Below, piece after piece: positions 8,112 to 23,495 of a stretch of 64,000 nt of DNA. The stretch covers positions 1-64,000 of the IMG/VR virus record IMGVR_UViG_3300036800_000175; one strand, written 5' to 3'. The stretch's first letter is position 1; each line of letters starts with the position of its first letter. Origin of the DNA: a virus. Under the pieces are notes generated by a model. That model was not told the DNA's origin and did not search any database. It saw only the letters and a program-made list of their open reading frames with translations. The position numbers and the translations under genes are program-made.

Positions 8112-9353
8112 ATGATTGACCTGGTCGGCCCGAAAGGGTATGTCCACAATTGGGTGTTCGTAGGCGTTCCCGGCGCAAAGGCTGCCGCGCCCAAGGCGTC
8201 CGGCCCCGCTGCGGCGAAGGCGTCAGGGTCACTGCTGGACGCGTACAAGGGCTGGCGGGACAGCCTGACACCGGCTGAGTCCAAAGCCATGTCGTTCTAC
8301 CAGTCACCCGGGTTCGCCCTGATGAACGGCCAGTTGCGCGGCGTCGACGGTGGCCATTTGAAGGCCAGTGAGCATGCCACTGATGCGGACCTGGCCCGGG
8401 CGCGGCAGGCAAGCAAAGGCCTCGCCGGGGCCATAGCGAAAGCACCGCCGCTGCCCCGCGACACCACCGTGTACCGGGGGTTCGACGCCGGCCAGTTCGG
8501 TGACCTGACCCCCGGCAAAGTGATCACCGACAAGGGGTTCACGTCGGTGTCGGTGAACAACGACGCCGGCGCGGTCGGCCGCGCCACATCCAAGGCACAA
8601 GCGGTGATCACTCTCCCGGCGGGCACCAGGGCGGCCGCCGGATCGGTGCGTGAGCTCGTGCTGCCACCGGGATCCAGTTTCCGTGTCGTCTCCGCCCAGA
8701 AACGCGGAAAGGTGACGCATGTTCGGCTGGAACTAGTCCCGCGCGGCGGCAAGAAGCTGGCGAACCGCCGCGGCCGCGCGCTCGAGTTGACCGGCCCGAA
8801 AGGCTGGTCACACGGCTGGATCCGCGACGGCGACACGGTCACCTACACCGGCAACCTCGGCGTCGGCCGCGCCGACATGGCCCAACTGTCCGGCACCGTC
8901 GCCGGAAAGTACGTGCCGTCCGCAGCGATGATCCCGAAGTTCATCGCCCACCTGCGTGGCAAAGGCATCACGGTCACCTCGAGGCGCGCGCCGGCCGAGT
9001 CGCTGCGGGCGACGCAGACGACCGGGTCGATGCCGATGATCCGGGGCATCGCGGACGACCTGAAATCCGGCAGGCTGGCCGACACGAAACCGATCGTGAT
9101 CAGCTCTGACAACCGGGTGCTAGACGGGCATCACACCTGGGCTGGGCGGGTCCTGGCCGACTCCGAAGGCGGCCGTCCGGATCTGCCGCCGGGGATGCGG
9201 GTTGTGCAGGTCGGCATGCCGATGGCGGACCTGATCGGTGAGGCACGGCAGTTCGGCCGGGCCAGCGGTATCGCGCAACGCAAACCGGGTGAGATCGGCA
9301 ACCCGGCGTTCATGAAACCGAAGGTAGGACTAGCGGCGCGGGGGGTCGCGTGA
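8112..9353 (+). CDS. VIP2-like (R-S-E) ADP-ribosyltransferase domain fused to a ParB-like domain
   Basis: MNGQLRG, TVYRG, GFTSVS, RELVLPPG; second module PIVISSDNRVLDGHHTW; each module preceded by GPKGxxHxW. Confidence 0.8.
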   Translation: MIDLVGPKGYVHNWVFVGVPGAKAAAPKASGPAAAKASGSLLDAYKGWRDSLTPAESKAMSFYQSPGFALMNGQLRGVDGGHLKASEHATDADLARARQASKGLAGAIAKAPPLPRDTTVYRGFDAGQFGDLTPGKVITDKGFTSVSVNNDAGAVGRATSKAQAVITLPAGTRAAAGSVRELVLPPGSSFRVVSAQKRGKVTHVRLELVPRGGKKLANRRGRALELTGPKGWSHGWIRDGDTVTYTGNLGVGRADMAQLSGTVAGKYVPSAAMIPKFIAHLRGKGITVTSRRAPAESLRATQTTGSMPMIRGIADDLKSGRLADTKPIVISSDNRVLDGHHTWAGRVLADSEGGRPDLPPGMRVVQVGMPMADLIGEARQFGRASGIAQRKPGEIGNPAFMKPKVGLAARGVA

Positions 9354-10159
9354 AGACACCAGGACCGCAGCGTGCGGCCGGCCGCCGCCAACTCGCGGCC
9401 CGGAAGCAGGCCCTGCCGGGCGGGTCGTTCCCGATCCCGGACGTCGCCTATCTCAAGAAAGCGATCCGGTCGGTTGGCCGCGCACCGGCGTCGAAACGCC
9501 CGGCGTTGAAGGCGCTGATCCGCAAACGGGCCCGCGAACTCAAGGCCGCGAACACGCCTGGGGTCAAGGGGACGTGGCCGTTCCAGGCCGCCAACACGCA
9601 CGGGAAGGTGGTTGACCTCGCGATGGCGACGATGACCCGCAAGATGCCGGTGGTCCGCGGTGCCGCGGATGTGCAGCTGACCCGGAGTGGGCCGGGCAAG
9701 GTCACCGTGATGCACAAGTCCACCGGCTTCAAGGTCGGCACCCTCGGCCAGGCGGGGAAGGGCTGGCAGGGTGTCCACGCGTCGGGTGCGAAGACACCGC
9801 CGTCGGGGTCGATGGGCGGTGCGGTCGCCGGCCTGGTCGCGACGCACAACCAGCTCGCCCGGGGGAAGAAACTGCCACCCGCGCAGCAGGACGGTACCGC
9901 CACGTACGCGCATCCGGCGGGTGACGGGATCGACCTGGCTGGTGCGCTGCCCCATTCCACGCCGGCGAGCTCGGCGTCCGACGGGCCGCGCGTCACCACC
10001 GCCGGCGGCAGCGGGCCGGCTGGGCTGACCGGCGAAGCGGCCGCCGTCTACGCGAAGCTGATCAAGAAGGGGCTCAAGCCTGGCCAGGCGGCCGCGCTCG
10101 CCAGACGCGCGGCGGCGATGCACGCGAAGGCGGCAGACCCAAAAGCCTCAGCCGCGTAG
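9350..10159 (+). CDS. Head-associated protein with DUF6582-like N-terminus and a segment resembling the capsid N-terminus
   Basis: ALPGGSFPIPD..LKKAIRSVGRA..LIRKRAREL; TPASSASDGPRVT. Confidence 0.65.
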   Translation: MKTPGPQRAAGRRQLAARKQALPGGSFPIPDVAYLKKAIRSVGRAPASKRPALKALIRKRARELKAANTPGVKGTWPFQAANTHGKVVDLAMATMTRKMPVVRGAADVQLTRSGPGKVTVMHKSTGFKVGTLGQAGKGWQGVHASGAKTPPSGSMGGAVAGLVATHNQLARGKKLPPAQQDGTATYAHPAGDGIDLAGALPHSTPASSASDGPRVTTAGGSGPAGLTGEAAAVYAKLIKKGLKPGQAAALARRAAAMHAKAADPKASAA

Positions 10160-10164
10160 GCGGC
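10138..10164 (+). other. Candidate -1 ribosomal frameshift signal (C CCA AAA plus GCCGC-GTAG-GCGGC hairpin)
   Basis: X XXY YYZ heptamer in the correct phase; hairpin 6 nt downstream; -1 frame continues into the zeta domain with no start codon. Confidence 0.75.
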
Positions 10165-10959
10165 CGGACGGTAGACCTGGTCGGCCCGAAAGGGTATGAG
10201 CATGGCTGGCGGTTCGTCGGGATCCCCGCCGACTCGCTGACCGCGCACACCGACAAGTCCGGGAACCTGACCCCCGCCCGGGCGGCGCTGCATCAGAAAA
10301 TCGTGGCGCGGGCGCTCTCTGGCGCACCGAAGTCGGCTCATCCGGTCGCGACGTTCATGGGTGGCGGTCCCGCGTCCGGGAAATCCGCGATGCTCAAAGC
10401 CTCCGGCAGCCGCGGCCGGCCCGCGGGGGTCACGATCGACGCCGACGCGATCAAAGCGCAGCTACCCGAATACCAGGCGATGACCAGGGCGGGGAACGCC
10501 GGCGCGGCCGCCTATGCGCATGAAGAGTCGTCGGTGATCGCGAAGAAAATCCAGGCCGCCGCCATCAAGGGCGGCCACGACTTCACGTTGGACGGCACCG
10601 GGGATTCCAGCTACGCCAAACTGGCCAGCAAGGTCACCGCGGCGAAAGCGGCCGGGTACAAGGTCCACGGCCAGTACGTGACCGTCGACACCCCCGCCGC
10701 GGTCGAGCGGGCGACCGCCCGGGCGGCGAAAACAGGCCGCATGGTCCCCCCGTCGGTGATCAAGGAAATCCACGCTGGGGTGTCCGGCGCGTTCCGCCAG
10801 GCCGTCGCGAACAACCTGTTCGACACGTCCGAGCTGTGGGACAACAACGGGTCTAGCAGTAATGCGATTAAACTGATAGGGAGCCAGCGTGCAGGCGGCC
10901 AGTTCACGGTCGCTGACCAGGGCGCTTATGCGCGGTTCCTCGCGAAGGAAAACGAATGA
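10144..10959 (+). CDS. Zeta-toxin-like P-loop kinase, probably expressed as a -1 frameshift fusion
   Basis: GGGPASGKS, IDADAIKAQLPEY, HEESS, LDGTG, LWDNN; VDLVGPKGYEHGW lies upstream of the first GTG (10303). Confidence 0.85.
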   Translation, partial: SLSRVGGRTVDLVGPKGYEHGWRFVGIPADSLTAHTDKSGNLTPARAALHQKIVARALSGAPKSAHPVATFMGGGPASGKSAMLKASGSRGRPAGVTIDADAIKAQLPEYQAMTRAGNAGAAAYAHEESSVIAKKIQAAAIKGGHDFTLDGTGDSSYAKLASKVTAAKAAGYKVHGQYVTVDTPAAVERATARAAKTGRMVPPSVIKEIHAGVSGAFRQAVANNLFDTSELWDNNGSSSNAIKLIGSQRAGGQFTVADQGAYARFLAKENE

Positions 10960-11496: not shown

Positions 11497-11522
11497 GTCG
11501 TAGATCCTTTCCTCAGGCGGGT

Positions 11523-12269
11523 TCAGGTGATCTTGCGGATCGGCACGACCATCGCACGGAACCGGCTGCCGATCTTCACCAGCACGGCCGCTCCGGGCAG
11601 GCCGGCACTGAACTCCACCGACACATGCCGGTCCGACTTCCTCTTCTTGCCGGAGAACACCTCATCGGATTCGACCTTCCCGAACAGGGTCAGCCACTTC
11701 TGGCCGAGGATGAACTCAGCAGGCGGCTCACCCGCCGGGATCTCCGCCATGCTGGGCTGCTTCGCACGCGGCTTGCGGTGGCCGCCGAACAGTGTCTCGC
11801 CCGCCCGCGGGAACTCCCCGGAGGTGAGGACCTCGGCGCGGAGCGTCTGGTCAGGCTCGCATGCCTGCCCGGTGAGGGTGAACGCGGCGTGCCCCTCACC
11901 TTCGACCCACTCGATCACGATCCGGGGCGGCCCGGCGAGCGGTGAGAACTCTTGCAGTGACGCCAGCATTTTCGTGATCTTCACCAGTCCCGTGACGACG
12001 ACCAGGATGTCCAGGTCGGTTTCGGGGACGGGCGGCGGATCGGCGGTGCCCGGCACGGCGATCTGGGCCGGGTCGATCAGGTCCAGGTCCTCGCGGCTGA
12101 TCACGTAACGGTTGGTCGCCTCAAGCAGCAGCCTGCCGGGCTCAGTGCTGGTGAAATGCACGGCGCACAGCGACGGCAGGGTGTCGTCGGTGCAGGCGAA
12201 CAGTGAGGCGTTGAGCACTGCGCGGTAGAACGCGGTGGCGTCCACTGTCGCGGTGTGAGTGTCACTCAT
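11523..12269 (-). CDS. DNA polymerase III beta-clamp-like protein
   Basis: FACTDDTLPSLCAVH, LEATNRY, GEFP, C-terminal FRAMVVPIR match clamp domains 2-3. Confidence 0.7.
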   Translation of the reverse strand: MSDTHTATVDATAFYRAVLNASLFACTDDTLPSLCAVHFTSTEPGRLLLEATNRYVISREDLDLIDPAQIAVPGTADPPPVPETDLDILVVVTGLVKITKMLASLQEFSPLAGPPRIVIEWVEGEGHAAFTLTGQACEPDQTLRAEVLTSGEFPRAGETLFGGHRKPRAKQPSMAEIPAGEPPAEFILGQKWLTLFGKVESDEVFSGKKRKSDRHVSVEFSAGLPGAAVLVKIGSRFRAMVVPIRKIT

Positions 12270-12287
12270 GATCTTCCTTCCTGTAGG

Positions 12288-12530
12288 TCAGGCGGCCAGC
12301 GCCAGCGCGGGCCGGGTCGTGGGGCGGATGACGGTCACTTCGCGCATTGGCACGCCGGCGGCGGCCAGAGCCTCAGGTGTCCGGGCGAACGCCATGACCT
12401 TGCCGTCCAGCCGGGCGCAGATCTGCGGGCCGTCTCCGACGGGATCCAGTGGCGTGCCGGCCGGGTTGAACCGGCGTGGCGGCCGGGTGAATTCCAGATC
12501 CATCACCTCAGCCGTCCACCCGGAAGTCAT
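12288..12530 (-). CDS. Hypothetical protein
   Basis: Coupled within leftward operon. Confidence 0.55.
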   Translation of the reverse strand: MTSGWTAEVMDLEFTRPPRRFNPAGTPLDPVGDGPQICARLDGKVMAFARTPEALAAAGVPMREVTVIRPTTRPALALAA

Positions 12531-12814
12531 GACTGCGCCTCAGCGGCCAGCCGGCCGTTCAGCAGCCCGGCGGGACGCGGGCCGGTCGCGACACGGCTCG
12601 TGCCGTACGCGTACCAGAACGCCCGGTCGTTCGCGGCCTTGGCCAGCCTGCGGCCATCCTCAACACGGGCCAGCGCCTCACCGTGGGAGTCGTAGGGGCC
12701 CAGCAGCCGGCCGGTCCGGCCGCCGTCCTTGACGGTGACGTAGAACCCGCCGGGGTCGCCGTTGTCATGCGAGCCGGCTGGGCAGCCGCACGGCTCAGCC
12801 GTGGTGGTGGTCAT
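12527..12814 (-). CDS. Hypothetical protein
   Basis: RBS GAAGGAG; FYVTVKDGGRTGRLLGPY. Confidence 0.65.
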   Translation of the reverse strand: MTTTTAEPCGCPAGSHDNGDPGGFYVTVKDGGRTGRLLGPYDSHGEALARVEDGRRLAKAANDRAFWYAYGTSRVATGPRPAGLLNGRLAAEAQS

Positions 12815-12834
12815 CGTTGCTCCTTCGGTGGCCA

Positions 12835-13203
12835 TCAGGCGGCCAGGCACATTGCGCGGCGGTTGGAAGCGATTTGCGTGGTGGCCGTGGCCATGCCCGA
12901 CGCGGCCGCCTCAGTCAGTGACCCGGCCTGGTCCTGCCACCGTGAACTGCCGTACACCTCGCCTTTTTCGGGGCTGCCGGTCTGCCAGTTCCGCCGCGAC
13001 GCGCGGCCCACGGCCAGGACCCCGCCGGCCAGGACCTCGCCGGGCTCCGGCTCATCGGGGTGCACCCACCATGCGTTGGACAGGCCGTTGCCGGTGGGGG
13101 CGCCGGACCAGACGGTGCCTATCCGGTCGTACGGCTCGCGATCGGCGCTGTAGTGGCGCCAGACCATCACGTCGCCGGCCTGGACAGGCTTGGCGGTCGT
13201 CAT
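12835..13203 (-). CDS. Hypothetical protein
   Basis: First gene after promoter 13247-13275; RBS GGAAGGA. Confidence 0.65.
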   Translation of the reverse strand: MTTAKPVQAGDVMVWRHYSADREPYDRIGTVWSGAPTGNGLSNAWWVHPDEPEPGEVLAGGVLAVGRASRRNWQTGSPEKGEVYGSSRWQDQAGSLTEAAASGMATATTQIASNRRAMCLAA

Positions 13204-13246
13204 CGGGGTTCCTTCCCGCGGGGGGATCCGTTCCCCTCACAACTAC

Positions 13247-13275
13247 ATTTTACCCGGTCAAGTAGACCACGTCAA
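13247..13275 (-). promoter_or_regulatory. Repeated promoter/operator copy 1 (TTGACG-17-TAAAAT)
   Basis: Sigma70-type boxes; spacer contains the GTCWA-N-TTGAC palindrome. Confidence 0.85.
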
Positions 13276-13306
13276 ATAAAACGAGCCGCCCCGGACGGGA
13301 CGGCTC
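13276..13306 (-). terminator. Intrinsic terminator
   Basis: GAGCCG..CGGCTC hairpin followed by a T-tract on the minus strand. Confidence 0.6.
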
Positions 13307-13443
13307 AGAGGTTTCCGCAGGTCAACGGCGGCGCCTCGCCCTGCTGCGGGCCGCCCGCCAGACCGCGACGACAGCCACCGGGCAGGTGACAGCAGCAGCC
13401 GCCTCGAGCGGGTGGGAGCCGGTCAGCCAGCCGGCGACGGCGG

Positions 13444-13704
13444 TCACGCCTGCACCTCCGCCTGCGGCTTCGGCGCCGGGTAGGTGCTGTGAGCCAGGAT
13501 GACGTGATCCCGGTACTCCGGACCCGGTCCCTGCTTGACCCACTCCTGCTCATAGGTGCGGCCGGCGTAGATGCTGCCGTCCTGCGGCCAGGTGGCTTGC
13601 TCATAGATGGTGACGCCGTAGTCGGTGCCAGCCGGGGTGGATCCGTTCGGTGCGGGCGGCCGCAGGGTTTCCCACTCCACTCGCCGCACTTCCTGCCAGT
13701 CCAC
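13444..13704 (-). CDS. Hypothetical protein
   Basis: Downstream of promoter copy 2; RBS GGAG. Confidence 0.6.
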   Translation of the reverse strand: MDWQEVRRVEWETLRPPAPNGSTPAGTDYGVTIYEQATWPQDGSIYAGRTYEQEWVKQGPGPEYRDHVILAHSTYPAPKPQAEVQA

Positions 13705-13748
13705 AGGGGTTCTCCGTCCCGTGAGGGGAACCTCCCCTCACACTCCCT

Positions 13749-13777
13749 ATTTTACCCGGTCAAGTAGACACGGTCAA
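13749..13777 (-). promoter_or_regulatory. Repeated promoter/operator copy 2 (TTGACC-17-TAAAAT)
   Basis: Same 29-bp architecture. Confidence 0.85.
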
Positions 13778-13821
13778 ATAGCAGAACGCCCCCGCGTACC
13801 CCCGCGCCACGAGCACGTCGG

Positions 13822-14037
13822 TCACAGCCGCACCTCACGCTTGAGGACCTCCCGGGCGTACTTGACCACCTCAGGCAGGAGCCACACCTGCATCCGGGCC
13901 AGCTTCTTAGACTTCGGCGCCTCCGGGTGGATGCGCCGGTCCATCAGCTGCCCGGCGCGCTGCTTGGACACGCCGAGCATCTGCCCGATCTCACCCACGC
14001 CCACCACGTCGTCAATGGTCACCTTGCGTGCTGTCAC
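13822..14037 (-). CDS. AlpA/excisionase-like HTH DNA-binding protein
   Basis: VVGVGEIGQMLGVSKQRAGQL..P.P...VW..EV. Confidence 0.8.
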   Translation of the reverse strand: MTARKVTIDDVVGVGEIGQMLGVSKQRAGQLMDRRIHPEAPKSKKLARMQVWLLPEVVKYAREVLKREVRL

Positions 14038-14113
14038 CGGCTCGCTCCAATTCGGCTCACGCCCCCGGCCGTTTGACCGGGGGCAGTTGACGGGGTCAGG
14101 TGGCCCCAGTAAA

Positions 14114-14509
14114 TCAGCCGGCCGCCGTGGCGTCCGTCTCGATGTCCACCTCAGCGGCGAACCGGCCTTCCCAGTAGTCCCGCTGGCCGTCGGAGTTGTC
14201 GTAGTTGTACGCCCACAGGATCGCCTTGAGCGTGTCCTCGATCAGCTGCGCACCCGGGGTGAGCACGGACCGGCCGTAGTCATCGGTGGTGAAATGCTCC
14301 GCGTCGGCCAGGCCGGTCACCGTCACGGTGACCGACTTGCCCCCCGAATACCGTGCGATCCGCACCCCGTAGCCCAGCCCAGGGGGCAGGCCGGGCAGGC
14401 CCAGGGCGGCGGCCAGCCGGGCGGCCTTGATGTCAGCCCGGACCAGCTTCGCCACCTCCGCGATATCCAGGGACTGTGTGTCGTGGTACTTGCTGCCGTA
14501 GGTGCTCAT
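14114..14509 (-). CDS. Large-polyvalent-protein-associated domain (LPD29/LPD25-like) protein
   Basis: AKLVRADIK..VRIARYSGGKSVTV..YNYDNSD..DYW..F. Confidence 0.55.
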   Translation of the reverse strand: MSTYGSKYHDTQSLDIAEVAKLVRADIKAARLAAALGLPGLPPGLGYGVRIARYSGGKSVTVTVTGLADAEHFTTDDYGRSVLTPGAQLIEDTLKAILWAYNYDNSDGQRDYWEGRFAAEVDIETDATAAG

Positions 14510-14859
14510 TCCTTCCTCTCTTCCGGGCCAAGACGGCGCGTTCCGGGCCGCGGGCCCCAGACGCGCTCGATCTCCCGGTTGCAGTCCCAGCGCGGGTTAC
14601 TCGGCGGGTCGCCCTCATGGCAGGGGCATTCGCAGTGGGTGACCTCACAGCCGGGGTTGACCCAGCCGTGGCAATCGGCGTGAGTGCCCGTCCCGGTGCC
14701 GAGGCAGTTGATCGTCGTCTTGCCCTTGCGCAGCCCACGCCGCGACGCGGGCGCGGGCTGCGGGTCGGGCTCGCACATCCGGCAGACGCCGGATGTGCTG
14801 TCGCAGCCGCTGGACCGGCACCAGGTGCCGGACGGCGTGTTGTGCTGGGGGATCTTCAC
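14506..14859 (-). CDS. Cys-rich metal-binding hypothetical protein
   Basis: Multiple Cys/His clusters including CECPCH. Confidence 0.55.
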   Translation of the reverse strand: MKIPQHNTPSGTWCRSSGCDSTSGVCRMCEPDPQPAPASRRGLRKGKTTINCLGTGTGTHADCHGWVNPGCEVTHCECPCHEGDPPSNPRWDCNREIERVWGPRPGTRRLGPEERKE

Positions 14860-16496
14860 GCGGTCTCCTCACCGGCCGCCGCCATGGCGGTCGTCTCATC
14901 GGTGCTGGCCGGGGCCGGGATCACGGCCAGCACCGTGCTGACACTGGTCCCCGACACGGCGAACGACTCATCCGGCAGCCGCTCAATCCACCCGCCGCAA
15001 TCCGCGACCAGCTTGCGGAACCCCTCCGCCGTCTTGTTCTCCCGGGACTGCGCCCCGGCGGACATGACCGCCACCAGCCGGCCACCCGGCTTGACGAACC
15101 CCAGCGCGTGGGTGACATGCGCGATGTCGGCCTGACCGGCGAACGGCGGGTTCATCAGGACCCGGTCGTAATACTCCGCGCCAGCCGGATTGTCCCGGGG
15201 ACCGTATTCCAGGAAATCGGTGCAGACGACCATCCGCGCGAACGGCTCGCCGCGCAGCCGGCCGGCCATCTGGCCGTTCAGCTCCACGCAGTCCACCACC
15301 GCGCCTGCCGCAGCGGCCACCGACGCGATCGCGCCCAGCCCGGCTGAGGGTTCCAGCACCGTCATCCCGGGAGTCAGACCCGCTTCGCTGATCATCTGGT
15401 CAACGACCGCGGCCGGGGTGGGGAAGTAGCCGGTACGGGCGTCCACCCGGATCGGCTCGGGCCGCTCGGCCTGGGCCAGTTCGGGCACGGCGGGTGCCTC
15501 GCGGCGGGTCACCGTCCGCTTGGCCCGCACCACGACCGTCTTATCCTCATGCGGGCAGGTCACCGACTGGATCTGCTCATACGGCAGGACCCGGGGCCAG
15601 GACCGGCGGTCCAGCGAAACACTCTTCGGGTTGACCCGGACCACCGTCGCATCGCTGCCCGGCCGCGTCGACCAGGCCACCGTGTCGCCCTTGTGGACGG
15701 TCTCACGGTTCAGCCGGACGTACCCATTGGCCTCATGTTCGGCCAGCGCGGCCCGGTCCGCGGCCAGGTTGTGTTCCAGCCACGTCCTGCGGGCTTCCAG
15801 GGATTCCCTGTACGTCCCGCCCGCTGGCTGCCGGTCGTACCCGTAGGCGCCGCGCCAGTCGTTCGCCGGCCGCGTCCCGTTCAGGTAGTGGCCGATCTGC
15901 CGCAGTTCCGCCTCCGTCTTGTCGATCCGGCGGATGATCACCGCCGGGCGGTCGCGGTACGCGTCGGCCAGGCCGACCACCGCCGCAGCGGCAGATGCCC
16001 GTTCGGCTTCCCGCTGCGCCTCGCCTGCGGCGCGGTCGTTCTGCTCCATGCGCTCATGATCGCGGCGTGCACGCCGTTCGGAGTGATGGCCGACCAGGAT
16101 CGGCTGACCGCCGGCGAACCGCTCACTGATCGCGTCCGCGGCGGCGTGGCGGGACTGGGCTTCGGCTCCGGCCCGCTGCGCCTTCGCGGTCAGCCGGTCG
16201 TAACGGTCGTCCAGCCGGCCGGCCCGGTCCGCCCTGACCTCGGTCACGGCGCGGGGGGCGTCGTCAATCTCAACCGTCACCTCGTGGCCGGCCGCGCGGA
16301 GCACCTGTTCGGCTGCCTGGATCTGGTGGCGCTTGGCTGGGCGGTCGCGGGACTGGGCGATGCCGATCATCTTGATCGACGGGAAGTACCGGAACCGGGG
16401 CCCGGTCCGGGGGCCGATCAGCTCATACACGCCGTCGCCTTTGCTGGTCCCGTAGACCAGGGTGCCGTCTTCGTGTGTGTGCCGGATGGTGATCAT
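14856..16496 (-). CDS. DUF3560 domain fused to an amino-(N6A/N4C) DNA methyltransferase
   Basis: GQPILVGHHSERRARRD; YFPTP, LEPSAGLG, MNPPF; start reassigned to MITIRH with RBS AAGGA. Confidence 0.85.
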   Translation of the reverse strand: MITIRHTHEDGTLVYGTSKGDGVYELIGPRTGPRFRYFPSIKMIGIAQSRDRPAKRHQIQAAEQVLRAAGHEVTVEIDDAPRAVTEVRADRAGRLDDRYDRLTAKAQRAGAEAQSRHAAADAISERFAGGQPILVGHHSERRARRDHERMEQNDRAAGEAQREAERASAAAAVVGLADAYRDRPAVIIRRIDKTEAELRQIGHYLNGTRPANDWRGAYGYDRQPAGGTYRESLEARRTWLEHNLAADRAALAEHEANGYVRLNRETVHKGDTVAWSTRPGSDATVVRVNPKSVSLDRRSWPRVLPYEQIQSVTCPHEDKTVVVRAKRTVTRREAPAVPELAQAERPEPIRVDARTGYFPTPAAVVDQMISEAGLTPGMTVLEPSAGLGAIASVAAAAGAVVDCVELNGQMAGRLRGEPFARMVVCTDFLEYGPRDNPAGAEYYDRVLMNPPFAGQADIAHVTHALGFVKPGGRLVAVMSAGAQSRENKTAEGFRKLVADCGGWIERLPDESFAVSGTSVSTVLAVIPAPASTDETTAMAAAGEETA

Positions 16497-16654
16497 CGGG
16501 TGTTCCTTACTGCGGGGCGGCCGCGCCGCACCTTGCGGCGGCGGGCTGGGATGACCTTGACGGCCGGCGGGGCCGGGCGCCTGCGCGCCATGATCACGGC
16601 GGCGGCTGCGGCTCCTGCCAGCATCGGTTCCTCCCTCTCTCACCCTGCAATACC

Positions 16655-16699
16655 ATTGTACCCGGTCAACTTGACTAGGTCAAATTGACCGGGTACGTT
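16655..16699. promoter_or_regulatory. Promoter/operator copy 3, bidirectional (minus TTGACC-17-TACAAT; plus TTGACT-17-TACGTT)
   Basis: Extended palindrome GTACCCGGTCAA...TTGACCGGGTAC. Confidence 0.8.
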
Positions 16700-16707
16700 C
16701 CCGCAGG

Positions 16708-16971
16708 TCAGGTAGCGAAACGCGCCGTGATCCTGTACCGGTGGGCCCGGGTGACATGCGGTGCCATCTCCTGCACGTCCACCACCTCGGGCGTCACGCC
16801 GGTCGCGGCACGCAGCAGCGAGGCAATCCACCGCCGGTCGCCGTAGTAGCAGGTCGTGCCGGGCATCGCGATCACCACCGCGCCACGGTGCGCGGGGGAC
16901 GCGGTGGTCGTGATGTTCACGCCCGGGTGCAGGCGGCGCAGTCCGCGGGTCACCTCAGCAGGGGTCAGCAT
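16708..16971 (-). CDS. Hypothetical protein
   Basis: Leftward operon member. Confidence 0.55.
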   Translation of the reverse strand: MLTPAEVTRGLRRLHPGVNITTTASPAHRGAVVIAMPGTTCYYGDRRWIASLLRAATGVTPEVVDVQEMAPHVTRAHRYRITARFAT

Positions 16972-17146
16972 TGGGGGGGCCTTTCTGGTCGTAGTTCACG
17001 GGCGCGTCGGTTTCGATCACGTATGACACGCCGTCGCCGTCGGTGGCGTTCGCCGCCTCTTCATCGGCCTGGTGCCGGTCGCCGTACACGAAACCGGGCA
17101 TATCCGCGAGTCTGTGACTCCCGTAGATGACCTGATAGTTGGGCAT
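16955..17146 (-). CDS. Small acidic hypothetical protein (MPNYQVIYG...)
   Basis: RBS GAAGGGGG; downstream of promoter copy 4. Confidence 0.6.
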   Translation of the reverse strand: MPNYQVIYGSHRLADMPGFVYGDRHQADEEAANATDGDGVSYVIETDAPVNYDQKGPPNADPC

Positions 17147-17188
17147 CGGATGTCCCCCTTCCGTAGGGCCTCGCGGGCTTACAACCTG

Positions 17189-17217
17189 ATTGTACGCGGT
17201 CAAGTTGACCCGGTCAA
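17189..17217 (-). promoter_or_regulatory. Promoter/operator copy 4 (TTGACC-17-TACAAT)
   Basis: Contains perfect GGTCAA-G-TTGACC palindrome. Confidence 0.85.
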
Positions 17218-17443
17218 ACCTCACGGAGCACGGCGAGGTAATCCTCACCGTCGACGGTGAGGCACAGGCAGTCGCTGTATTCCGGGTCGGTGGCCAGGTG
17301 GCCACGCCGCACGGCACGGCACGCTGCCGCGCGGGCCGCCCGGCCTGCTGGTCGATCCTGGTGGCCGTGCACGGGCGTACCTGCTCAGCCAGACTCAGCG
17401 CGACCCGGTCTCTCATCTCAGCCGCCGTCAGACTGCGGGCCAT
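17214..17443 (-). pseudogene. Apparently frameshifted small gene (MARSLTAAEM... / ...LCLTVDGEDYLAVLREV)
   Basis: N- and C-terminal protein-like halves are in different frames; RBS GGAGGT. Confidence 0.4.
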
Positions 17444-17484
17444 CGCTAGCGGTCACCTCCGCGATCTGCTCCACCCTGCACTTC

Positions 17485-17513
17485 ATTGTACCTGGTCAAC
17501 TTGACGCGGTCAA
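17485..17513 (-). promoter_or_regulatory. Promoter/operator copy 5 (TTGACC-17-TACAAT)
   Basis: Same architecture. Confidence 0.85.
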
Positions 17514-17533
17514 AGGTGCGGGGGTGTTACGCA

Positions 17534-18181
17534 GTGCCGGACGCGTGGCGCCACACCCTCGGCCTGGACACCGCCGGCCTCCGCGCCTACGGGCGGTTGC
17601 GCGCCCGTGGCGTCGGTCACGGCCACGCTGTAAAAACGGCCCGCCGCACCGTCACCCTCGGCCATACGTGGGCCGCCATTGAGCTGGTCGGCCCGCACGG
17701 CTATGAGCACAACTGGATCTTCGTCGGCGTCCCAGCGGACAAGGTCGGTCATGTCACAACCCTGAAAGGTGATCAGCAGTTCTACCATGTGACCAGGAGA
17801 GATCCTGAGCAGGCGATCAGGAACGGCCTGCCCCCATCGCAGGCTGGTGAGAGCGGCCCCGGCGTCTATCTAGCGGCTGACCGGCAGTACGCCTCAAGCA
17901 TGACGCGCTGGGACAACTCAATGAAGACGCTGGGCGTGACAGTTCACGCCGGCAACGGACTGCACCTACTCGACAGGACTAAGCCCGGCGGGGAAGCCGA
18001 ATACCGCCGCATCCAGATGTATGAGAACGGCAACAAAAACGTCGGCATGGACAAGGCGCTAGCCGCCAACGGCTACCACGGCGTGCGGTACCTCTCACCG
18101 GGCAACAAATACGCAGAGACGGTCATCCACGACCCGGGCAAGCTGACAGTGCATGGCGTTGTCAGTCCCGGGGCGGCGTAG
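17534..18181 (+). CDS. GPxGYxHxW-tagged H-Y-E type ADP-ribosyltransferase-fold protein
   Basis: IELVGPHGYEHNWIFVGVP, then FYHVT, GPGVYLA, GYHGVRY, ETVIHDP; visibly lower GC. Confidence 0.75.
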   Translation: MPDAWRHTLGLDTAGLRAYGRLRARGVGHGHAVKTARRTVTLGHTWAAIELVGPHGYEHNWIFVGVPADKVGHVTTLKGDQQFYHVTRRDPEQAIRNGLPPSQAGESGPGVYLAADRQYASSMTRWDNSMKTLGVTVHAGNGLHLLDRTKPGGEAEYRRIQMYENGNKNVGMDKALAANGYHGVRYLSPGNKYAETVIHDPGKLTVHGVVSPGAA

Positions 18182-18464
18182 CGGCCTCCGCCAAAGCGTC
18201 CCAGTGGTCAAGCTGATCGGCGGGGACATCAGGGTCATCCCAATGACACAGGATGAGTTTGCAAAGATCCCGCAACGGCTGCGGTAGGCGACCTTCGCTG
18301 ATCATCCCCGCATGGGATCGGGGAACCATTGAGGGGGCTTTGCGGCAACGGGCGCACTGATCCGGGTCAAGCTGATCGGGGTGTCCCCATGCTGCCGGCA
18401 GCGCGTGCAGCTCACTCGCGGGCGATCTCAGCGGCCAGATCGTGACCATCGCCGGCTCAGCCAT
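18162..18464 (-). CDS. Hypothetical protein
   Basis: Last gene of leftward operon, convergent on the ART gene. Confidence 0.4.
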   Translation of the reverse strand: MAEPAMVTIWPLRSPASELHALPAAWGHPDQLDPDQCARCRKAPSMVPRSHAGMISEGRLPQPLRDLCKLILCHWDDPDVPADQLDHWDALAEAATPPRD

Positions 18465-18678
18465 CGCGCAGCACCTCCGCGATCTGCTTATCGGTGGCAC
18501 CAGTGGCCTTCGCCAGCCGGATGGCCAGCGGTCGCGGCAGATCATCACGCCAGACCGCGACGTCGGGTTGCGGGTACGTGCCCGCTTCCAGCTCCGCGAT
18601 GACGCTGAGCAGCTGCGGGCACTTATCGAGGATGAGCACCGGGTGCGGTAGGGAACGGGCCCAAGGCTGCGGTTTCAT
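18457..18678 (-). CDS. Hypothetical protein
   Basis: ATGA coupling; RBS GGAAGGA. Confidence 0.55.
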   Translation of the reverse strand: MKPQPWARSLPHPVLILDKCPQLLSVIAELEAGTYPQPDVAVWRDDLPRPLAIRLAKATGATDKQIAEVLRDG

Positions 18679-18929
18679 GCGGATCGTCCTTCCGGGTTGA
18701 GGTGGGTGCGGCCAGCGAGCATGTCGCGGACGGCCTCGGCCCGGCTGGGCCGGAACTCGGTCCACGCGTTCGCACCGTCGCCCAGGGCGGCCCAGCCGCC
18801 GGGGCCCGGCCCGAACCCTGAGACCCAGCCGGCGACCTTCCAGCGGCCGCGTGGCTTGGCTTGGGTCAGGACCGTGTAGTCCCGGGGCGTCATGTGCTCG
18901 CCCTTGCGCTTCCGGAAACGGGTGCGCAT
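18675..18929 (-). CDS. Hypothetical protein
   Basis: Coupled in operon. Confidence 0.5.
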   Translation of the reverse strand: MRTRFRKRKGEHMTPRDYTVLTQAKPRGRWKVAGWVSGFGPGPGGWAALGDGANAWTEFRPSRAEAVRDMLAGRTHLNPEGRSA

Positions 18930-19144
18930 CACTTGCCCCCTCCCGCCCATTGGGCGACTTGCAGCCGGAACCCTTCCGGCGCCGAGCCGGCCGGGTAGAC
19001 CGCGCATTTGAAGCCCTCGGCTTCGTATGCGCGGTGCCGGGCGTTGCAGTGGCCGCGCCGGCCGCCGCTCAGCTTGATGGGCAGGCCCAGCGGGCAGTAC
19101 GACGGCTTCCAGCCCCACAGCACGAACTCAGTGGCGGCCATCAC
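18929..19144 (-). CDS. Hypothetical protein
   Basis: Coupled in operon. Confidence 0.55.
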   Translation of the reverse strand: MMAATEFVLWGWKPSYCPLGLPIKLSGGRRGHCNARHRAYEAEGFKCAVYPAGSAPEGFRLQVAQWAGGGK

Positions 19145-19449
19145 GCACCTTCCAATGCGGCGTCCATCGCGGCGTACCAGTCCTCATCGGACTCGAACAC
19201 GCGGTCGCAGCCGCCGGTGCCTTCGGTACACCGGGACTGGCCCGGCTTCAAGCCAGCCTGTTCCGGGTAGCAGGCCGGCACCCGGTAGCCCACCACGGAT
19301 CCGTGCGTGCAGATCCCGCGCTTCTGCGCGCGGTGCATCGCGTTGCCCACGCGGGCCAGTTCGGCCATCTGTATGTCGGCGTCGAAACGCTCGGCTTCCA
19401 GGGCTTCCACGTCGGCCCAGGGGTCCTCATCGAACGCGGCGTAGCTCAT
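19141..19449 (-). CDS. Hypothetical protein
   Basis: Coupled in operon; CTH..C..C. Confidence 0.65.
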   Translation of the reverse strand: MSYAAFDEDPWADVEALEAERFDADIQMAELARVGNAMHRAQKRGICTHGSVVGYRVPACYPEQAGLKPGQSRCTEGTGGCDRVFESDEDWYAAMDAALEGA

Positions 19450-19772
19450 CGGGTGCCTGCTCTCTCATAGTTGATGGGGACGTGGACGCCGGTGAACCGG
19501 GAGGCCAGGGTGCGGCGGGCGCATTCCTGGGGGGTCAGCCGGCCGTCGCGGGCGGTGATCCGCTCGGAGACGGGGTCGGCGGCTGAGATCCAGCCGCCGC
19601 CGGCGGCGCGGATGCCGGGGGTGACGGTGACGTGCAGCCGCCATCCGGTTCCGGTGGTCTCGCACAGGACCAGGATCATCGCCTCACCGGCGTCGATCTC
19701 GGCGCCGGCTTCGGGGTAGGCCCGGTTGTACTCGCGGGCCGCTTCCCTGATCCCTGCCTCTGTCATCTCCAC
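19446..19772 (-). CDS. Hypothetical protein, possibly leaderless
   Basis: Start lies ~7 nt from the -10 box of promoter copy 6. Confidence 0.6.
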   Translation of the reverse strand: MEMTEAGIREAAREYNRAYPEAGAEIDAGEAMILVLCETTGTGWRLHVTVTPGIRAAGGGWISAADPVSERITARDGRLTPQECARRTLASRFTGVHVPINYERAGTR

Positions 19773-19778
19773 AACTAC

Positions 19779-19807
19779 AGTTTACCCGGTCAACTAGACA
19801 GGGTCAA
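19779..19807 (-). promoter_or_regulatory. Promoter/operator copy 6 (TTGACC-17-TAAACT)
   Basis: Same architecture. Confidence 0.85.
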
Positions 19808-20164
19808 ATCTGAGAAGTACCGTTCACCATCACCCGTGCAGGTCACACCCGCATCGACCATGTCGCCCAGCAGACCCGCGAACCGCCACGCAGACAGCCC
19901 GTTGATCTGCTGCGCCAGCGTCCCGGAGATCCGGAACCCCCGGACGTGCTTCTCATAGGACAGCGCCGCACCGAACCCCGGCCGCAGCGCCGCCTCCGTC
20001 CCCTCCGTGAAGTAGCCGGGGTACTGGGCGGCGTTGATCAGGGCTTCGGCCATGTCGGTATGCAGGTCCTGCCGGCCGTCCCGGCCGAGCCGGTAACGGC
20101 GCGTCCGGGTGCCCAGTGAGAAGTACCGGCGCAGCGCAGCGGCCAGATCCTGACCCGCGGTCAC
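19790..20164 (-). CDS. Hypothetical protein
   Basis: GTGA coupling. Confidence 0.6.
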   Translation of the reverse strand: MTAGQDLAAALRRYFSLGTRTRRYRLGRDGRQDLHTDMAEALINAAQYPGYFTEGTEAALRPGFGAALSYEKHVRGFRISGTLAQQINGLSAWRFAGLLGDMVDAGVTCTGDGERYFSDLTLSS

Positions 20165-20661
20165 GGCTCACTCCGGTCGCAGTTGACGACGGTGCCGTCC
20201 TTGCGGACGTCGATCCAGTCGTGGATGTCCAGGTCATCGCCGCAGTGGCCGCAGCTGGGCGGGATGCCGGGCATCTCGGCGCGCATCTTGTCGGTGATGA
20301 TGACCCGGCGCATGGCCACCATGCGGCCGGCCGCGACGTCGGGCACCATGCGCGGCTGCCCATCCGGCCGGTACGGGCTCGCCGCGACCTCCGCAGCGGT
20401 AGCCGGCCGCAGTTTGGTCACGTTGACCTGGAATGAGCACGGGCCGCCTGTGCCGGTCGGGCTCTTGGGCTGCAAGGTCGCCGGCTCAAATTCCACGGAC
20501 GCCCAGGTGACGGGAGTGGCGCGGGGCACCGATTCGCCGGTAGCGGTCAGCCTGTGGGTGTCGAACTCCAGCCGGCGGACCGGGCCGGTGAAGATCCGGT
20601 TGAAGCGGTCGGGGCCGGTCACCATCTCACCGACGCGGTACGTGTGCTTGGCCTTGGCCAT
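20161..20661 (-). CDS. Hypothetical protein with C-terminal CxxC
   Basis: RBS GGAAGGA; start MAKAKH after promoter copy 7. Confidence 0.65.
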   Translation of the reverse strand: MAKAKHTYRVGEMVTGPDRFNRIFTGPVRRLEFDTHRLTATGESVPRATPVTWASVEFEPATLQPKSPTGTGGPCSFQVNVTKLRPATAAEVAASPYRPDGQPRMVPDVAAGRMVAMRRVIITDKMRAEMPGIPPSCGHCGDDLDIHDWIDVRKDGTVVNCDRSEP

Positions 20662-20703
20662 GCCGTGAATCCTTCCCGCGGGGGCACTTCCCCCTACAAC
20701 CCC

Positions 20704-20732
20704 ACTATACGCGGTCAACTTGACCGGGTCAA
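20704..20732 (-). promoter_or_regulatory. Promoter/operator copy 7 (TTGACC-17-TATAGT)
   Basis: Perfect GGTCAA-C-TTGACC palindrome. Confidence 0.85.
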
Positions 20733-20752
20733 AACGAAGCGGAGGGGAGGGC

Positions 20753-21028
20753 GTGGTGACCCACACGCAGACGTACGTGTACCCGCGGACGTTCACCGGC
20801 TGGCGGCCACGCCCACCCGCCGAATACCGGGACAAGGCGATCACCAACGCTGGCCGGGAACCCGACTACGAAGGCGTCATATTCAGTGACGGCACCGTCG
20901 TCATCCGGTGGGCCACCCAGTACAAGTCGCATTCGGTGTGGGCGTGCTGGGACGACTTCCTGCACGTCCACGGCCACCCGGAGTACGGAACCGTCATCGA
21001 GTGGGCCGACGGCGGTGACCCGCCCTAA
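20753..21028 (+). CDS. Phage hypothetical protein (EGVxFSDGTVVIRW..HGH type)
   Basis: Strong RBS GGAGGGGAGG. Confidence 0.7.
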   Translation: MVTHTQTYVYPRTFTGWRPRPPAEYRDKAITNAGREPDYEGVIFSDGTVVIRWATQYKSHSVWACWDDFLHVHGHPEYGTVIEWADGGDPP

Positions 21029-21506: not shown

Positions 21507-22775
21507 GTGGCCCAGTTGACCGCTTTGCTCACACCCGTCGACGCCGGAACCGCCCGCCGCGCAGGCCGGCACCTGTGGCGGAAGCAACTGCTGCCCAAGG
21601 CGACGATCACGTACAAGGGCCGGCAGATCACGTTCGATGACGCCTACCTGGCCGACCTCGCCGCCGCGTTCAACAACCGCGCCTACGACCAGGTCCCGTT
21701 CCAGCTCGCGGACAAAGACAACGCCCACACCAACGACCCGGAACGGTTCCGCGGCGAAGTTGAAGCGCTCGAGGTGACCGCGGACGGCCTCGACATGGTC
21801 GTCTCGGCCAGCGAGGAAGGCTCCAAGGTCCTCGCCTCCAACCCCGGCCTCGGTGTGTCCGCCCGCATCACCGAGGGCTACGAACGGGCCGACGGGCAGG
21901 CGTTCCCCGTCGCCATCCAGCACGTCCTCGGCACTTTGGATCCGCGGATCACCGGGATGCGCCCGTGGCAGGCCATCAACGCCGCCAACGACACGGACTC
22001 CGGTCAGGTGACCGACCTGACCGGCTGCACCTACGACCTGGCCAGCGACCAGGCACCCCAACCGCCGGCACCAGCACCCAAGGAGACAGGTATGGCCCTG
22101 ACCGCAGAGCAGGAGGCCCGGTTGGGCCAGCTGCTGGATCTGCCCGATGACCAGTTCGCCGCGCTGCTCACCCCCGCCGCCGACGCAGGCGACGGTGCCG
22201 GCGGCGACGGCACCGATGAGCTGTCCGATGAGGAACTGCAAGCGCTCCTCGACTCGCTCCCCGACGACGACGCCGACAACGATGAGGGTGACGGTGACGG
22301 CGATGAGGGCGACACCGGCGACGCCGGCCAGGCGGCGGATGACAAGGTCCCGGCCGGTGCCGGGGCGGAACTGTCCGCCGACGCGCAGGCCGCGATCGAC
22401 CTGGCCAACGCCCGCGCGGAGGAACTCGAAGCCGGGTACACGCGGATGCGCCGCGAACTGGACGCCGCGACGTATGAGCGCGAGCGGGACACGTTCGCCC
22501 GCCAGCACGGCATCCCCCCCAGGATTTTCGACCTGGCCCGCCCCGTCCTCGAGGGTGAGGGCCGGGTCGTGGACCTGGCCAACGGGAAGCAGGCCGACGC
22601 CGGGCAGATCGTCCGCCGGGTCCTGACCGAGATCGGGAAGACGGTCAAGATGCTTGACCTGTCCGCCGAGCTCGGCAACCCCGACGGCGCCGACCAGGCC
22701 GCCACGGCCGCGCAGCAGGCCGCGGATGAGCGCGGCGAGATCGTCAAGGGCTTCCGCGCCCTGACCGGCGTCTGA
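21507..22775 (+). CDS. Mu I-like prohead protease fused to scaffold
   Basis: VPFQLAD..HT..GEV, GVSARI, HVLGTLDPRITGM; acidic coiled-coil C-terminus with internal RBS/ATG (22092); precedes decoration and capsid genes. Confidence 0.8.
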   Translation: MAQLTALLTPVDAGTARRAGRHLWRKQLLPKATITYKGRQITFDDAYLADLAAAFNNRAYDQVPFQLADKDNAHTNDPERFRGEVEALEVTADGLDMVVSASEEGSKVLASNPGLGVSARITEGYERADGQAFPVAIQHVLGTLDPRITGMRPWQAINAANDTDSGQVTDLTGCTYDLASDQAPQPPAPAPKETGMALTAEQEARLGQLLDLPDDQFAALLTPAADAGDGAGGDGTDELSDEELQALLDSLPDDDADNDEGDGDGDEGDTGDAGQAADDKVPAGAGAELSADAQAAIDLANARAEELEAGYTRMRRELDAATYERERDTFARQHGIPPRIFDLARPVLEGEGRVVDLANGKQADAGQIVRRVLTEIGKTVKMLDLSAELGNPDGADQAATAAQQAADERGEIVKGFRALTGV

Positions 22776-23042: not shown

Positions 23043-23495
23043 ATGCCGGGAGCACTTCCGCACCTCAAGCACGGCCCGGACAGCTACCAGGTATCCGCGC
23101 AGGTCCTCGGCGGGCAGCTGGTCGTCGCTGACGGCTCATCCGCCACCACCGTGTCCGTCGCCGGCGCAGGCGCGGCCAACGTCCTCGGCGTCGCCGGTGC
23201 GGACGCCGCCCCGGTCGTCTCCCAGGCCGGCAACGTCACCGGCTACGGGCAGCCCGTCGTGGACATCTCCGTCCTGCCCGACTACGTCCCCGTCTACCAC
23301 GGCGCGGACATGCACGTCACTTACGCCGCGACCGCCACATTCGGGGCGCTGCTCAAGTCCGCGGCCACCGGCCAGGTCACGCCCTGGGTGTCCGGCACCG
23401 ACGCGGCCGGCCTGATCGTCGGCCGCTGCACCCAGCCCGGCGGTGTCGCCGTCTCTGCCGGCGGCGTCGTCGGCCGAGCCCGGATATTCGGCTGA
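23043..23495 (+). CDS. Head decoration/cement protein
   Basis: Position, size, G/A/V-rich beta composition; RBS AAGGA. Confidence 0.7.
   Translation: MPGALPHLKHGPDSYQVSAQVLGGQLVVADGSSATTVSVAGAGAANVLGVAGADAAPVVSQAGNVTGYGQPVVDISVLPDYVPVYHGADMHVTYAATATFGALLKSAATGQVTPWVSGTDAAGLIVGRCTQPGGVAVSAGGVVGRARIFG

Follow-up and report, generated by a model that had tools for sequence, protein, structure and literature searches.

A putative capsid-arm mimic behind a candidate cleavage junction in a head-module protein of uncultured actinobacterial phages

The 64,000-nucleotide stretch analysed here (the window) forms part of a 109,876-bp virus record, IMGVR_UViG_3300036800_000175, from a phage of high GC content with a Mu-like head module. 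One of its head genes encodes P0001, a protein of 269 amino acids (aa) that a preliminary description of the sequence called a cargo protein. A linker in P0001 that is predicted to be disordered contains a look-alike of the N-terminal arm of the major capsid protein, preceded by a putative prohead-protease junction and by a short insert that resembles the N-terminus of the cement (decoration) protein. The capsid look-alike is far beyond chance. Counted from the junction, its residues appear to fall in the register of the mature capsid N-terminus; this register is the strongest new result of the analysis and points to a conserved, in-register mimic of an N-terminal arm. The pattern is a well-supported regularity of sequence, and the mechanism set out for it below is a proposal.

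The look-alike segment and its conservation

The translation of 9350-10159 contains ...GDGIDLAGALPHSTPASSASDGPRVTTAGG..., in which P0001 residues 194-216 (9929-9997) read IDLA-GALPH-STPASSASDGPRVT, letter for letter as the preliminary description gave them; its count of nine identities in 13 positions with the capsid N-terminus is likewise correct. The parts of the segment and the genes whose products it resembles are as follows.

9350-10159, plus strand: gene for P0001, a head-module protein (open reading frame and translation)
9929-9940, plus strand: IDLA junction, with a putative prohead-protease cut between L196 (9935-9937) and A197 (9938-9940)
9941-9955, plus strand: GALPH, look-alike of the cement N-terminus, an optional insert of 5-6 residues present in part of the family only
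9956-9997, plus strand: STPASSASDGPRVT, look-alike of the capsid N-terminal arm, with the conserved core DGPRVT at 9980-9997
23043-23495, plus strand: cement/decoration protein, 149 aa (start codon and ribosome-binding site, AlphaFold2 (AF2) model, Foldseek)
23046-23078, plus strand: N-terminal arm of the cement protein, PGALPHLKHGP
23534-24445, plus strand: major capsid protein (phrog_1650, PF25209, start codon)

Likeness was scored as the best ungapped 13-mer under BLOSUM62. The capsid look-alike scores 49; whole-protein shuffles of P0001 give 18.9±3.8 (maximum 38, with 0 of 5000 reaching at least 49), and shuffles of the 50-residue linker alone give 15.3±4.5 (maximum 41, 0 of 20000). The segment is also the top match to the capsid N-terminus among the 639 six-frame stop-to-stop segments of the window (87,193 aa), the next best scoring 31. 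The identity of GALPH to the cement start M-PGALPH, the other resemblance pointed out in the preliminary description, is real, but by itself it does not rise above background (28, against 27 and 26 for unrelated six-frame segments). GALPH was therefore rejected as independent evidence, and its weight comes only from conservation and register.

At the DNA level the look-alikes share 22 of 42 positions (capsid) and 11 of 18 (cement), and they use different synonymous codons for most of the residues they have in common; it is therefore the protein sequence in which the likeness is maintained. With a DNA identity of only 52%, gene conversion of recent date involving the linker and the capsid 5' end was rejected. 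An internal translation start at the junction was rejected as well, since the frame offers none of ATG, GTG and TTG there and many relatives have Phe as the junction residue.

Across 37 full-length P0001 homologues (mean column identity 52%), D211, G212 and P213 never change, conservation at D195, A197 and T216 is 90% or higher, and the remaining linker varies freely. The motif, with the consensus [S/T]-[S/A]-x-D-G-P-R-V-T, is present in more than 100 P0001 homologues, so the lack of conservation that the preliminary description named as grounds for abandoning the idea did not materialise; the GALP-type insert is absent from many homologues. Residues 174-223 are disordered in the AF2 model of P0001, and an invariant D-G-P within a disordered, variable linker means that the segment behaves as a short linear motif.

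A sequence of this composition might have no specific function, being a by-product of low complexity rich in S, T, A, P and G or the relic of an old duplication of the capsid 5' end; both segments are indeed S-, T-, P-, A- and G-rich, the GALPH part lies within chance, and the arm is missing in some relatives. The linker-only shuffles, the invariance of D-G-P amid freely varying neighbours, the conserved spacing described below, and the persistence of the motif across clades whose capsids are only about 80% identical, with differing synonymous codons, all argue against this, and we regard it as very improbable.

Linkers in this family come in several forms. An acidic stretch of the DPDNDGDDD type stands in place of the arm, between junction and C-terminal hairpin, in L159, L163, L172, L031, and L032; P0113, P0118, L118, and L137 carry both arm and acidic stretch, and the two look like alternative or additive linker modules. 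A metagenome protein of 325 aa (P0110) has two tandem junction-arm-hairpin units, the first reading ..LL↓ATPAASASDGPRVT and the second, with a degenerate arm, ..VEL↓AAGNSVSGPALN (here and below the arrow marks the putative cut); arm and hairpin thus behave together as a duplicable module.

N-terminal register, putative junction code, and possible tracking of the capsid arm

The capsid gene starts with GTG at 23534, the first start codon after an in-frame TAA five codons upstream, with an AAGGAG site on its 5' side. The N-terminus of the product is M-PTPAYSSLDGPRIT, the arm PTPAYSSLDGPRIT being encoded at 23537-23578, and D10, G11, and T15 are invariant in the capsid alignment. A full-length profile match places the protein among HK97-fold major capsid proteins (phrog_1650, E value 4.7e-72 over 4-303; PF25209, 33 bits against a cut-off of 27); the match to NCBIfam capsid_Caudo_1 (E value 3e-25) is under the curated cut-off. 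The nearest capsid protein among 50,697 records of isolated phages is 40% identical. Searched against PDB sequences, the capsid profile matched no close structure (best match, the HFTV1 capsid at an E value of 0.034), so the position of the arm is not readable from a solved capsid; the HFTV1 paper does not describe arm contacts useful for comparison.

The cement gene starts with ATG at 23043, behind the ribosome-binding site GAAAGGAA, and its product begins M-PGALPH; P1, G2, P5, G10, and P11 are invariant in the cement alignment. The AF2 model has a mean predicted local distance difference test (pLDDT) value of 77 and is confident in one of five models only. With pLDDT below 50 for residues 1-8 and a first strand at 12-16, the model has a predicted flexible N-terminal arm in front of a globular domain, as in cement/decoration proteins. 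Foldseek matched the model to the HFTV1 turret base (8qsy, E value 3e-5, template modelling score 0.63-0.71, probability 1.0) and, also with probability 1.0, to the phi29 gp8.5 head-fibre base, capsid-associated chains of Sf11 and Pam3, and TW1 chain 5wk1_K, with E values from 3e-5 to 2e-3 overall. Because these are cement, decoration, and turret-base folds, the 149-aa protein is taken as an external cement/decoration protein and not a scaffold.

The PHROG and GenBank labels on homologues of the 149-aa protein say otherwise. Isolated actinophages (L095, L096, and L097) encode upstream of the capsid gene a homologous protein of ~150 aa that is annotated as 'scaffolding protein' or 'minor capsid protein'; the 'scaffolding' label of the phrog_673 family is probably wrong. 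Cement and capsid N-termini are alike in these distant actinophages too, and in register (G10-P11): in Rhodococcus phage Mbo4 (L095; 4920-5369 and 5401-6330) the cement has SGVTQVTKTGPRTYV and the capsid VTSIVSVTDGPRTTV, both with G10-P11-R12-T13.

All register counts presuppose that the junction is cut exactly between [L/F] and A and that capsid and cement lose their initiator Met. Methionine aminopeptidase removes the initiator Met before P, S, T, or A. In 43 of 44 unique capsid N-termini the conserved D is separated from Met by exactly 8 residues, and the cement has G-P at positions 10-11 after Met in 74 of 78. Spacings from the P0001 junction to D, with the number of sequences in brackets, were 8 (15), 9 (6), 10 (7), 12 (4), 13 (22), and 14 (42) among the unique sequences of a first set, and 8 (27), 9 (6), 10 (3), 12 (1), 13 (10), and 14 (9) in a larger set of loci. 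The distribution is bimodal, at 8-10 and 12-14, with 8 and 14 the commonest values, and a spacing of 14 appears to be composed of six cement-like and eight capsid-like residues.

The short form, for example ..VDL↓ATPAASAS-DGPRVT, gives A1...D9-G10-P11-R12, and the mature capsid P1...D9-G10-P11-R12. The long form found in the window has A1-G2-A3-L4-P5-H6 followed by eight capsid-like residues, the insert after the junction following the register A1-G2-x-L4-P5-x6 where the cement has x1-G2-x-L4-P5-H6. In a second large clade, with capsid identity of about 80% and the capsid N-terminus MPTGARGYSD[A/G/S]PRIT, the P0001 junction reads ..IRAL↓ATP.. or ..SAGF↓ATP.., and the 8-residue spacing is kept.

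The junction itself belongs to a recurrent pattern, hydrophobic-[D/E]-L-[A/S/T/V]-[G/N], which the protease/scaffold protein carries at conserved places both in the window and in relatives from the two clades.

21507-22775, plus strand: protease/scaffold-like protein of 422 aa with an acidic middle, assigned as a protease from synteny and motifs only
22392-22409, plus strand: junction-type site AIDLAN in the protease/scaffold
22566-22583, plus strand: junction-type site VVDLAN in the protease/scaffold
22650-22667, plus strand: junction-type site MLDLSA in the protease/scaffold

The 422-aa protein matched no family in Pfam, PHROGs, or NCBIfam, even at E ≤ 5. Each of the six GPKGYxHGW tags in the window is preceded by [I/V/L]-[D/E]-L-[V/T]-G, and the P0001 version, IDLAG, thus has counterparts both in the scaffold and at domain borders of head proteins. 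This recurrence in scaffold and effector polyproteins suggests that the P0001 junction is probably cut by the prohead protease; the pattern fits a prohead-protease code, which stays putative.

Alternatively, the S-x-D-G-P-R-[I/V]-T core might itself be what the prohead protease recognises in capsid and P0001 alike, whether as exosite or as cut site. The capsid and scaffold of Staphylococcus phage 80alpha reportedly share a cleaved N-terminal motif, which would be a precedent; the P0001 motif adjoins the putative cut site; and a block in the protease/scaffold, LGTLDPRITGM (21927-21959), resembles the capsid SLDGPRITV. The recurrent junction code, however, is hydrophobic-[D/E]-L↓[A/S/T/V]-[G/N] and not DGPR, a cut site does not require exactly 8 residues before D, and the cement shares G10-P11 in register yet is external, late-binding, and an unlikely protease substrate. 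The protease block, moreover, lacks the G, and its role in the enzyme is probably structural. Recognition of the core as a processing determinant is, on this evidence, distinctly unlikely. The block is strongly conserved (DP[R/H/K]I in relatives), and its likeness to the capsid sequence may be fortuitous, or the block may be a structural part of the protease or a site of autoprocessing or product binding.

Covariation of the segment with capsid N-termini, the check proposed in the preliminary description, gave a suggestive answer, short of proof. The capsid/P0001 pairs leave out the large contigs carrying P0010, P0024, P0053, and P0058. Identity in the 21 same-genome pairs of the first clade is 8.81 over 18 aligned positions, against 7.96±0.19 for random pairing (0 of 20000). 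For the 45 unique same-genome pairs of both clades it is 7.09 over 14, against 6.45±0.12 when all pairs are permuted and 6.62±0.09 when permutation is kept within clades; the observed value was reached in 0 of 10000 permutations either way. Most of the signal comes from position -3, where S, T, or G is shared by 67% of same-genome pairs and 28% of random ones, and positions -5 and -7 add some. Both proteins changed together in one sub-clade (capsid PVSSITSM, P0001 SVPSVTSS), and the several changes of state on capsid-body trees all have the same direction. When P0113-type proteins were sought together with their capsid genes, only members of already sampled clades came up. The data suggest a motif that follows the capsid N-terminus loosely, and the failure to track that the preliminary description named as a refutation was therefore not seen; corrected for relatedness, the association is not significant.

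Probable frameshift extension and proposed docking of the arm

P0001 is predicted to have four parts, an N-terminal helical domain, a small beta/alpha domain, the disordered linker, and a basic C-terminal helical hairpin, and a candidate frameshift site near the end of its gene leads into the kinase frame.

9374-9538, plus strand: N-terminal helical domain, residues 9-63 (AF2 model)
9647-9865, plus strand: compact beta/alpha domain, residues 100-172 (AF2, pLDDT above 90)
10031-10135, plus strand: basic C-terminal helical hairpin, residues 228-262 (228-267 in the model; AF2, pLDDT about 90)
10138-10144, plus strand: slippery heptamer C CCA AAA for a -1 frameshift, in the P0001 frame, 4 codons before the TAG stop
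10144-10959, plus strand: -1 frame with linker, VDL↓VG, PKGYEHGW tag, and zeta-toxin-like kinase (PF06414, E value 6e-29)

The kinase frame, which encodes ..KSLSRVGGRTVDLVGPKGYEHGW.., is open from before 10060 and has no canonical start until 10303. Two distant relatives, L031 (2270-2300) and L032 (4795-4815), have G GGA AAA at the equivalent place; in these two and in the window the heptamer lies 1-4 codons before the stop of the P0001 homologue, and the -1 frame reads ..KS[L/M]SR.. and then [I/V]DLVGPKGY. A GCCGC-GTAG-GCGGC inverted repeat lies downstream of the heptamer. The combination of an X XXY YYZ heptamer with an open -1 frame that codes for a conserved protein is that of a programmed -1 frameshift, and it is likely that a conserved -1 frameshift extends P0001 with a tagged effector.

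Tethering of this kinase by the arm, as the preliminary description would have it, is doubtful. Close relatives keep the arm without the kinase, a cut-like VDL↓VG site separates the hairpin from the kinase, and an arm exposed only after protease action cannot be a procapsid-loading signal; for these reasons the frameshift gives no help to the idea. Loading of the kinase most likely depends on the rest of P0001 and not on the arm.

The reading we tentatively prefer, while putting it somewhat below an even chance, is that P0001 serves as both carrier and anchor, its cut linker presenting an in-register copy of the capsid arm that docks on the capsid lattice. The prohead protease would cut the linker at [L/F]↓A and set free a C-terminal fragment, ~70 residues long, with a copy of the capsid arm at its new N-terminus. 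In the short form this fragment would begin A1-x7-D9-G10-P11-R12-V13-T14, in the register of the mature capsid N-terminus; in the long form of the window the cement-like A-G-A-L-P-H would precede the capsid-like arm. The exposed arm would then dock on the shell at the type of site to which capsid and cement arms bind; in the solved capsids of P74-26 and lambda-like phages this is the E-loop sheet of a neighbour, bound by the capsid arm from inside. Docking of this kind would fasten the basic hairpin to the inside of the capsid wall, perhaps against DNA, and through the -1 frameshift fusion P0001 would be the carrier that takes the zeta kinase into the head. A broader version, which we consider rather doubtful, is that capsid protein, cement protein, and protease-released P0001 fragment share one arm code (eight variable residues, then [D/x]-G-P) and one type of lattice site, the fragment being an internal anchor or inner cement made only after maturation cleavage.

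Several points weigh against docking of a cleaved arm. Cutting, packaging, and shell binding of P0001 are all putative. The register argument needs both the exact [L/F]↓A cut and removal of the initiator Met, and spacings of 9, 10, 12, and 13 also occur. The second-clade junction is without the acidic residue that the scaffold there keeps, and cleavage in that clade is less certain. The core of the capsid arm varies (DAP, DSP, DGQ) and P0001 mostly keeps DGP. Independent capsid/P0001 pairs on well-supported branches number only 1-2, so the sign test cannot reach significance and is far from it. The arm is dispensable, because some relatives swap it for the acidic stretch. The cement, finally, sits outside the shell, and a cement-like arm on an internal fragment is therefore without an obvious site. 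Complex prediction with the capsid (alignment A2) and P0001 185-269 (alignment A1) returned 'no answer' with a score of 0.00, which is no evidence either way.

The motif could instead bind a shared partner, engaging the scaffold/protease in the procapsid as the capsid N-arm does, and not the mature lattice, so that P0001 and its fusions are co-assembled. Scaffolds of well-studied phages (P22; phi29) grip the capsid N-arm, the motif is predicted to be an accessible disordered linker before any cleavage, and P0001 adjoins the scaffold gene in all relatives; such binding would also explain, better than an arm exposed by cleavage, how the frameshift fusion is loaded. It leaves unexplained why junction spacing equals the register of a free N-terminus and why the segment resembles the N-terminus of an external cement, and scaffold binding is itself putative. 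We judge this shared-partner signal unlikely.

Known head proteins offer partial parallels. The C-terminal helix-turn-helix of the P22 scaffolding protein binds the coat N-arm, and P0001 similarly has a predicted basic C-terminal hairpin on a non-shell protein; unlike the P22 protein it is not the main scaffold, a role that falls to the separate 422-aa protein, and the P22 scaffold is not known to have an arm mimic. The capsid-targeting sequence (CTS) of T4 is an N-terminal peptide that has the scaffolding core as its target and is cleaved off by the prohead protease. P0001 would resemble it in having a short peptide on a non-shell head protein, putatively coupled to a protease, on a carrier that can bring unrelated enzymes into the head. 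The T4 CTS, however, sits at the extreme N-terminus, whereas the P0001 motif occupies residues 198-216 of 269, after two folded domains; being downstream of the putative cut, it would become exposed and stay on the fragment, and it copies the N-terminus of the capsid itself. Encapsulin cargo-loading peptides are terminal, have their own consensus, and bind a defined pocket of the shell interior. The likeness there is a short disordered peptide that docks cargo inside an HK97-fold shell, docking being putative for P0001; the P0001 motif differs in being internal and of another consensus, and encapsulin peptides are not known to involve mimicry of a shell arm or a protease. The capsid and scaffold of 80alpha likewise are two different head proteins with the same short terminal sequence, but there a host protease removes the shared peptide, whereas that of P0001 would remain as a new N-terminus.

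The internal, protease-processed DarA-Hdf of P1 has helix bundles anchored to the inner capsid surface, with a positive face that touches DNA (PMC12810830). P0001, ending in a predicted basic helical hairpin, could be anchored to the inner surface in a comparable way, but there is no relation in sequence or fold, and P1 anchors by helix bundles at penton-hexon junctions, with no capsid-arm mimic described (PMC12810830). In lambda, TW1, and P74-26 capsids the decoration arm and the capsid N-arm both augment the E-loop sheet of a neighbour, a pairing that gives a structural reason why cement and capsid N-termini could be alike and be copied (PMC6775164). By analogy, an E-loop-type site could plausibly receive a third arm of this kind, and the window cement shares its cement/decoration fold class with TW1; only shell and decoration proteins supply arms in those phages, however, and an arm copy on a third protein is not described (PMC6775164). 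Capsid-targeting peptides and inner-surface anchors are thus known kinds, and docking by an arm copy would be a new variant if it works as proposed. A search of the literature turned up no report of a third head protein on which a protease exposes a copy of the capsid N-terminus, and to our knowledge docking by self-mimicry timed to maturation has not been described for tailed phages.

How non-shell proteins, including injected enzymes, are fixed in the heads of tailed phages is known in detail for few systems (T4 CTS, P22 ejection, and P1 Dar). If the proposed docking is correct, the arm would offer a simple, portable tag with which proteins could be loaded into HK97-fold shells or anchored there, and arm-to-E-loop pairing could be borrowed by third proteins. 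It would also give a handle on a very large group of uncultured soil actinobacterial phages whose head modules carry ADP-ribosyltransferase, ParB-like, and zeta-kinase effectors.

Homologues and genomic setting of P0001

About 120 homologues of P0001 were found in public metagenomes. The protein matched no family in Pfam, PHROGs, or NCBIfam, even at E ≤ 5, and tblastn against the 50,697 records of isolated phages gave no match. Foldseek with the AF2 model returned nothing from PDB at E ≤ 0.001, the beta/alpha domain being without a convincing structural neighbour, and VIA-align wide with the same model returned generic helical hairpins only (Z ≤ 6.6); the structural neighbours of the C-terminal hairpin, likewise generic, reach a Z of 5.4. 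The domain of residues 9-63 is the module shared most widely, loci L028-L059 matching residues 1-85 only; the K/R-rich C-terminal hairpin is the best conserved over all clades in the alignments.

Two distant relatives (L029:1236-3668 and L030:9935-12058) encode polyproteins of 700-800 aa that are flanked by the P0001 N-domain and the C-terminal hairpin and carry several ELVGPKGYxHGW tags; the conserved P0001 ends may be carrier parts for variable cargo.

In ~25 related viral contigs the P0001 homologue, protease/scaffold, 149-aa protein, and capsid follow one another in this order, all inside 3-8 kb, which makes P0001 a core head-module gene. Contigs with capsid proteins 76-81% identical occur in actinobacterial metagenome bins (Mycobacterium, Actinospica, Streptosporangiaceae, and Kineosporiaceae), and P0001 is a conserved head-assembly protein of a large uncultured group of actinobacterial phages.

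The remaining head genes placed in the window lie upstream of P0001.

ending at 834: portal gene (PF06074)
1246-1911: MuF-like gene

Downstream of the MuF-like gene is a series of effector-type genes, for a 909-aa protein, an ADP-ribosyltransferase/ParB-like protein, P0001, and the zeta-toxin-like kinase. Relative to the related phages, the kinase and a block of ~10 kb are additions in the window phage. The block (11500-20850), mostly on the minus strand, is inserted between the effector genes and the protease/scaffold; it contains a beta-clamp-like gene, a methyltransferase-like gene (595 aa), and, on the plus strand at 17486-18181, a gene for a 231-aa protein that bears a IELVGPHGYEHNW tag.

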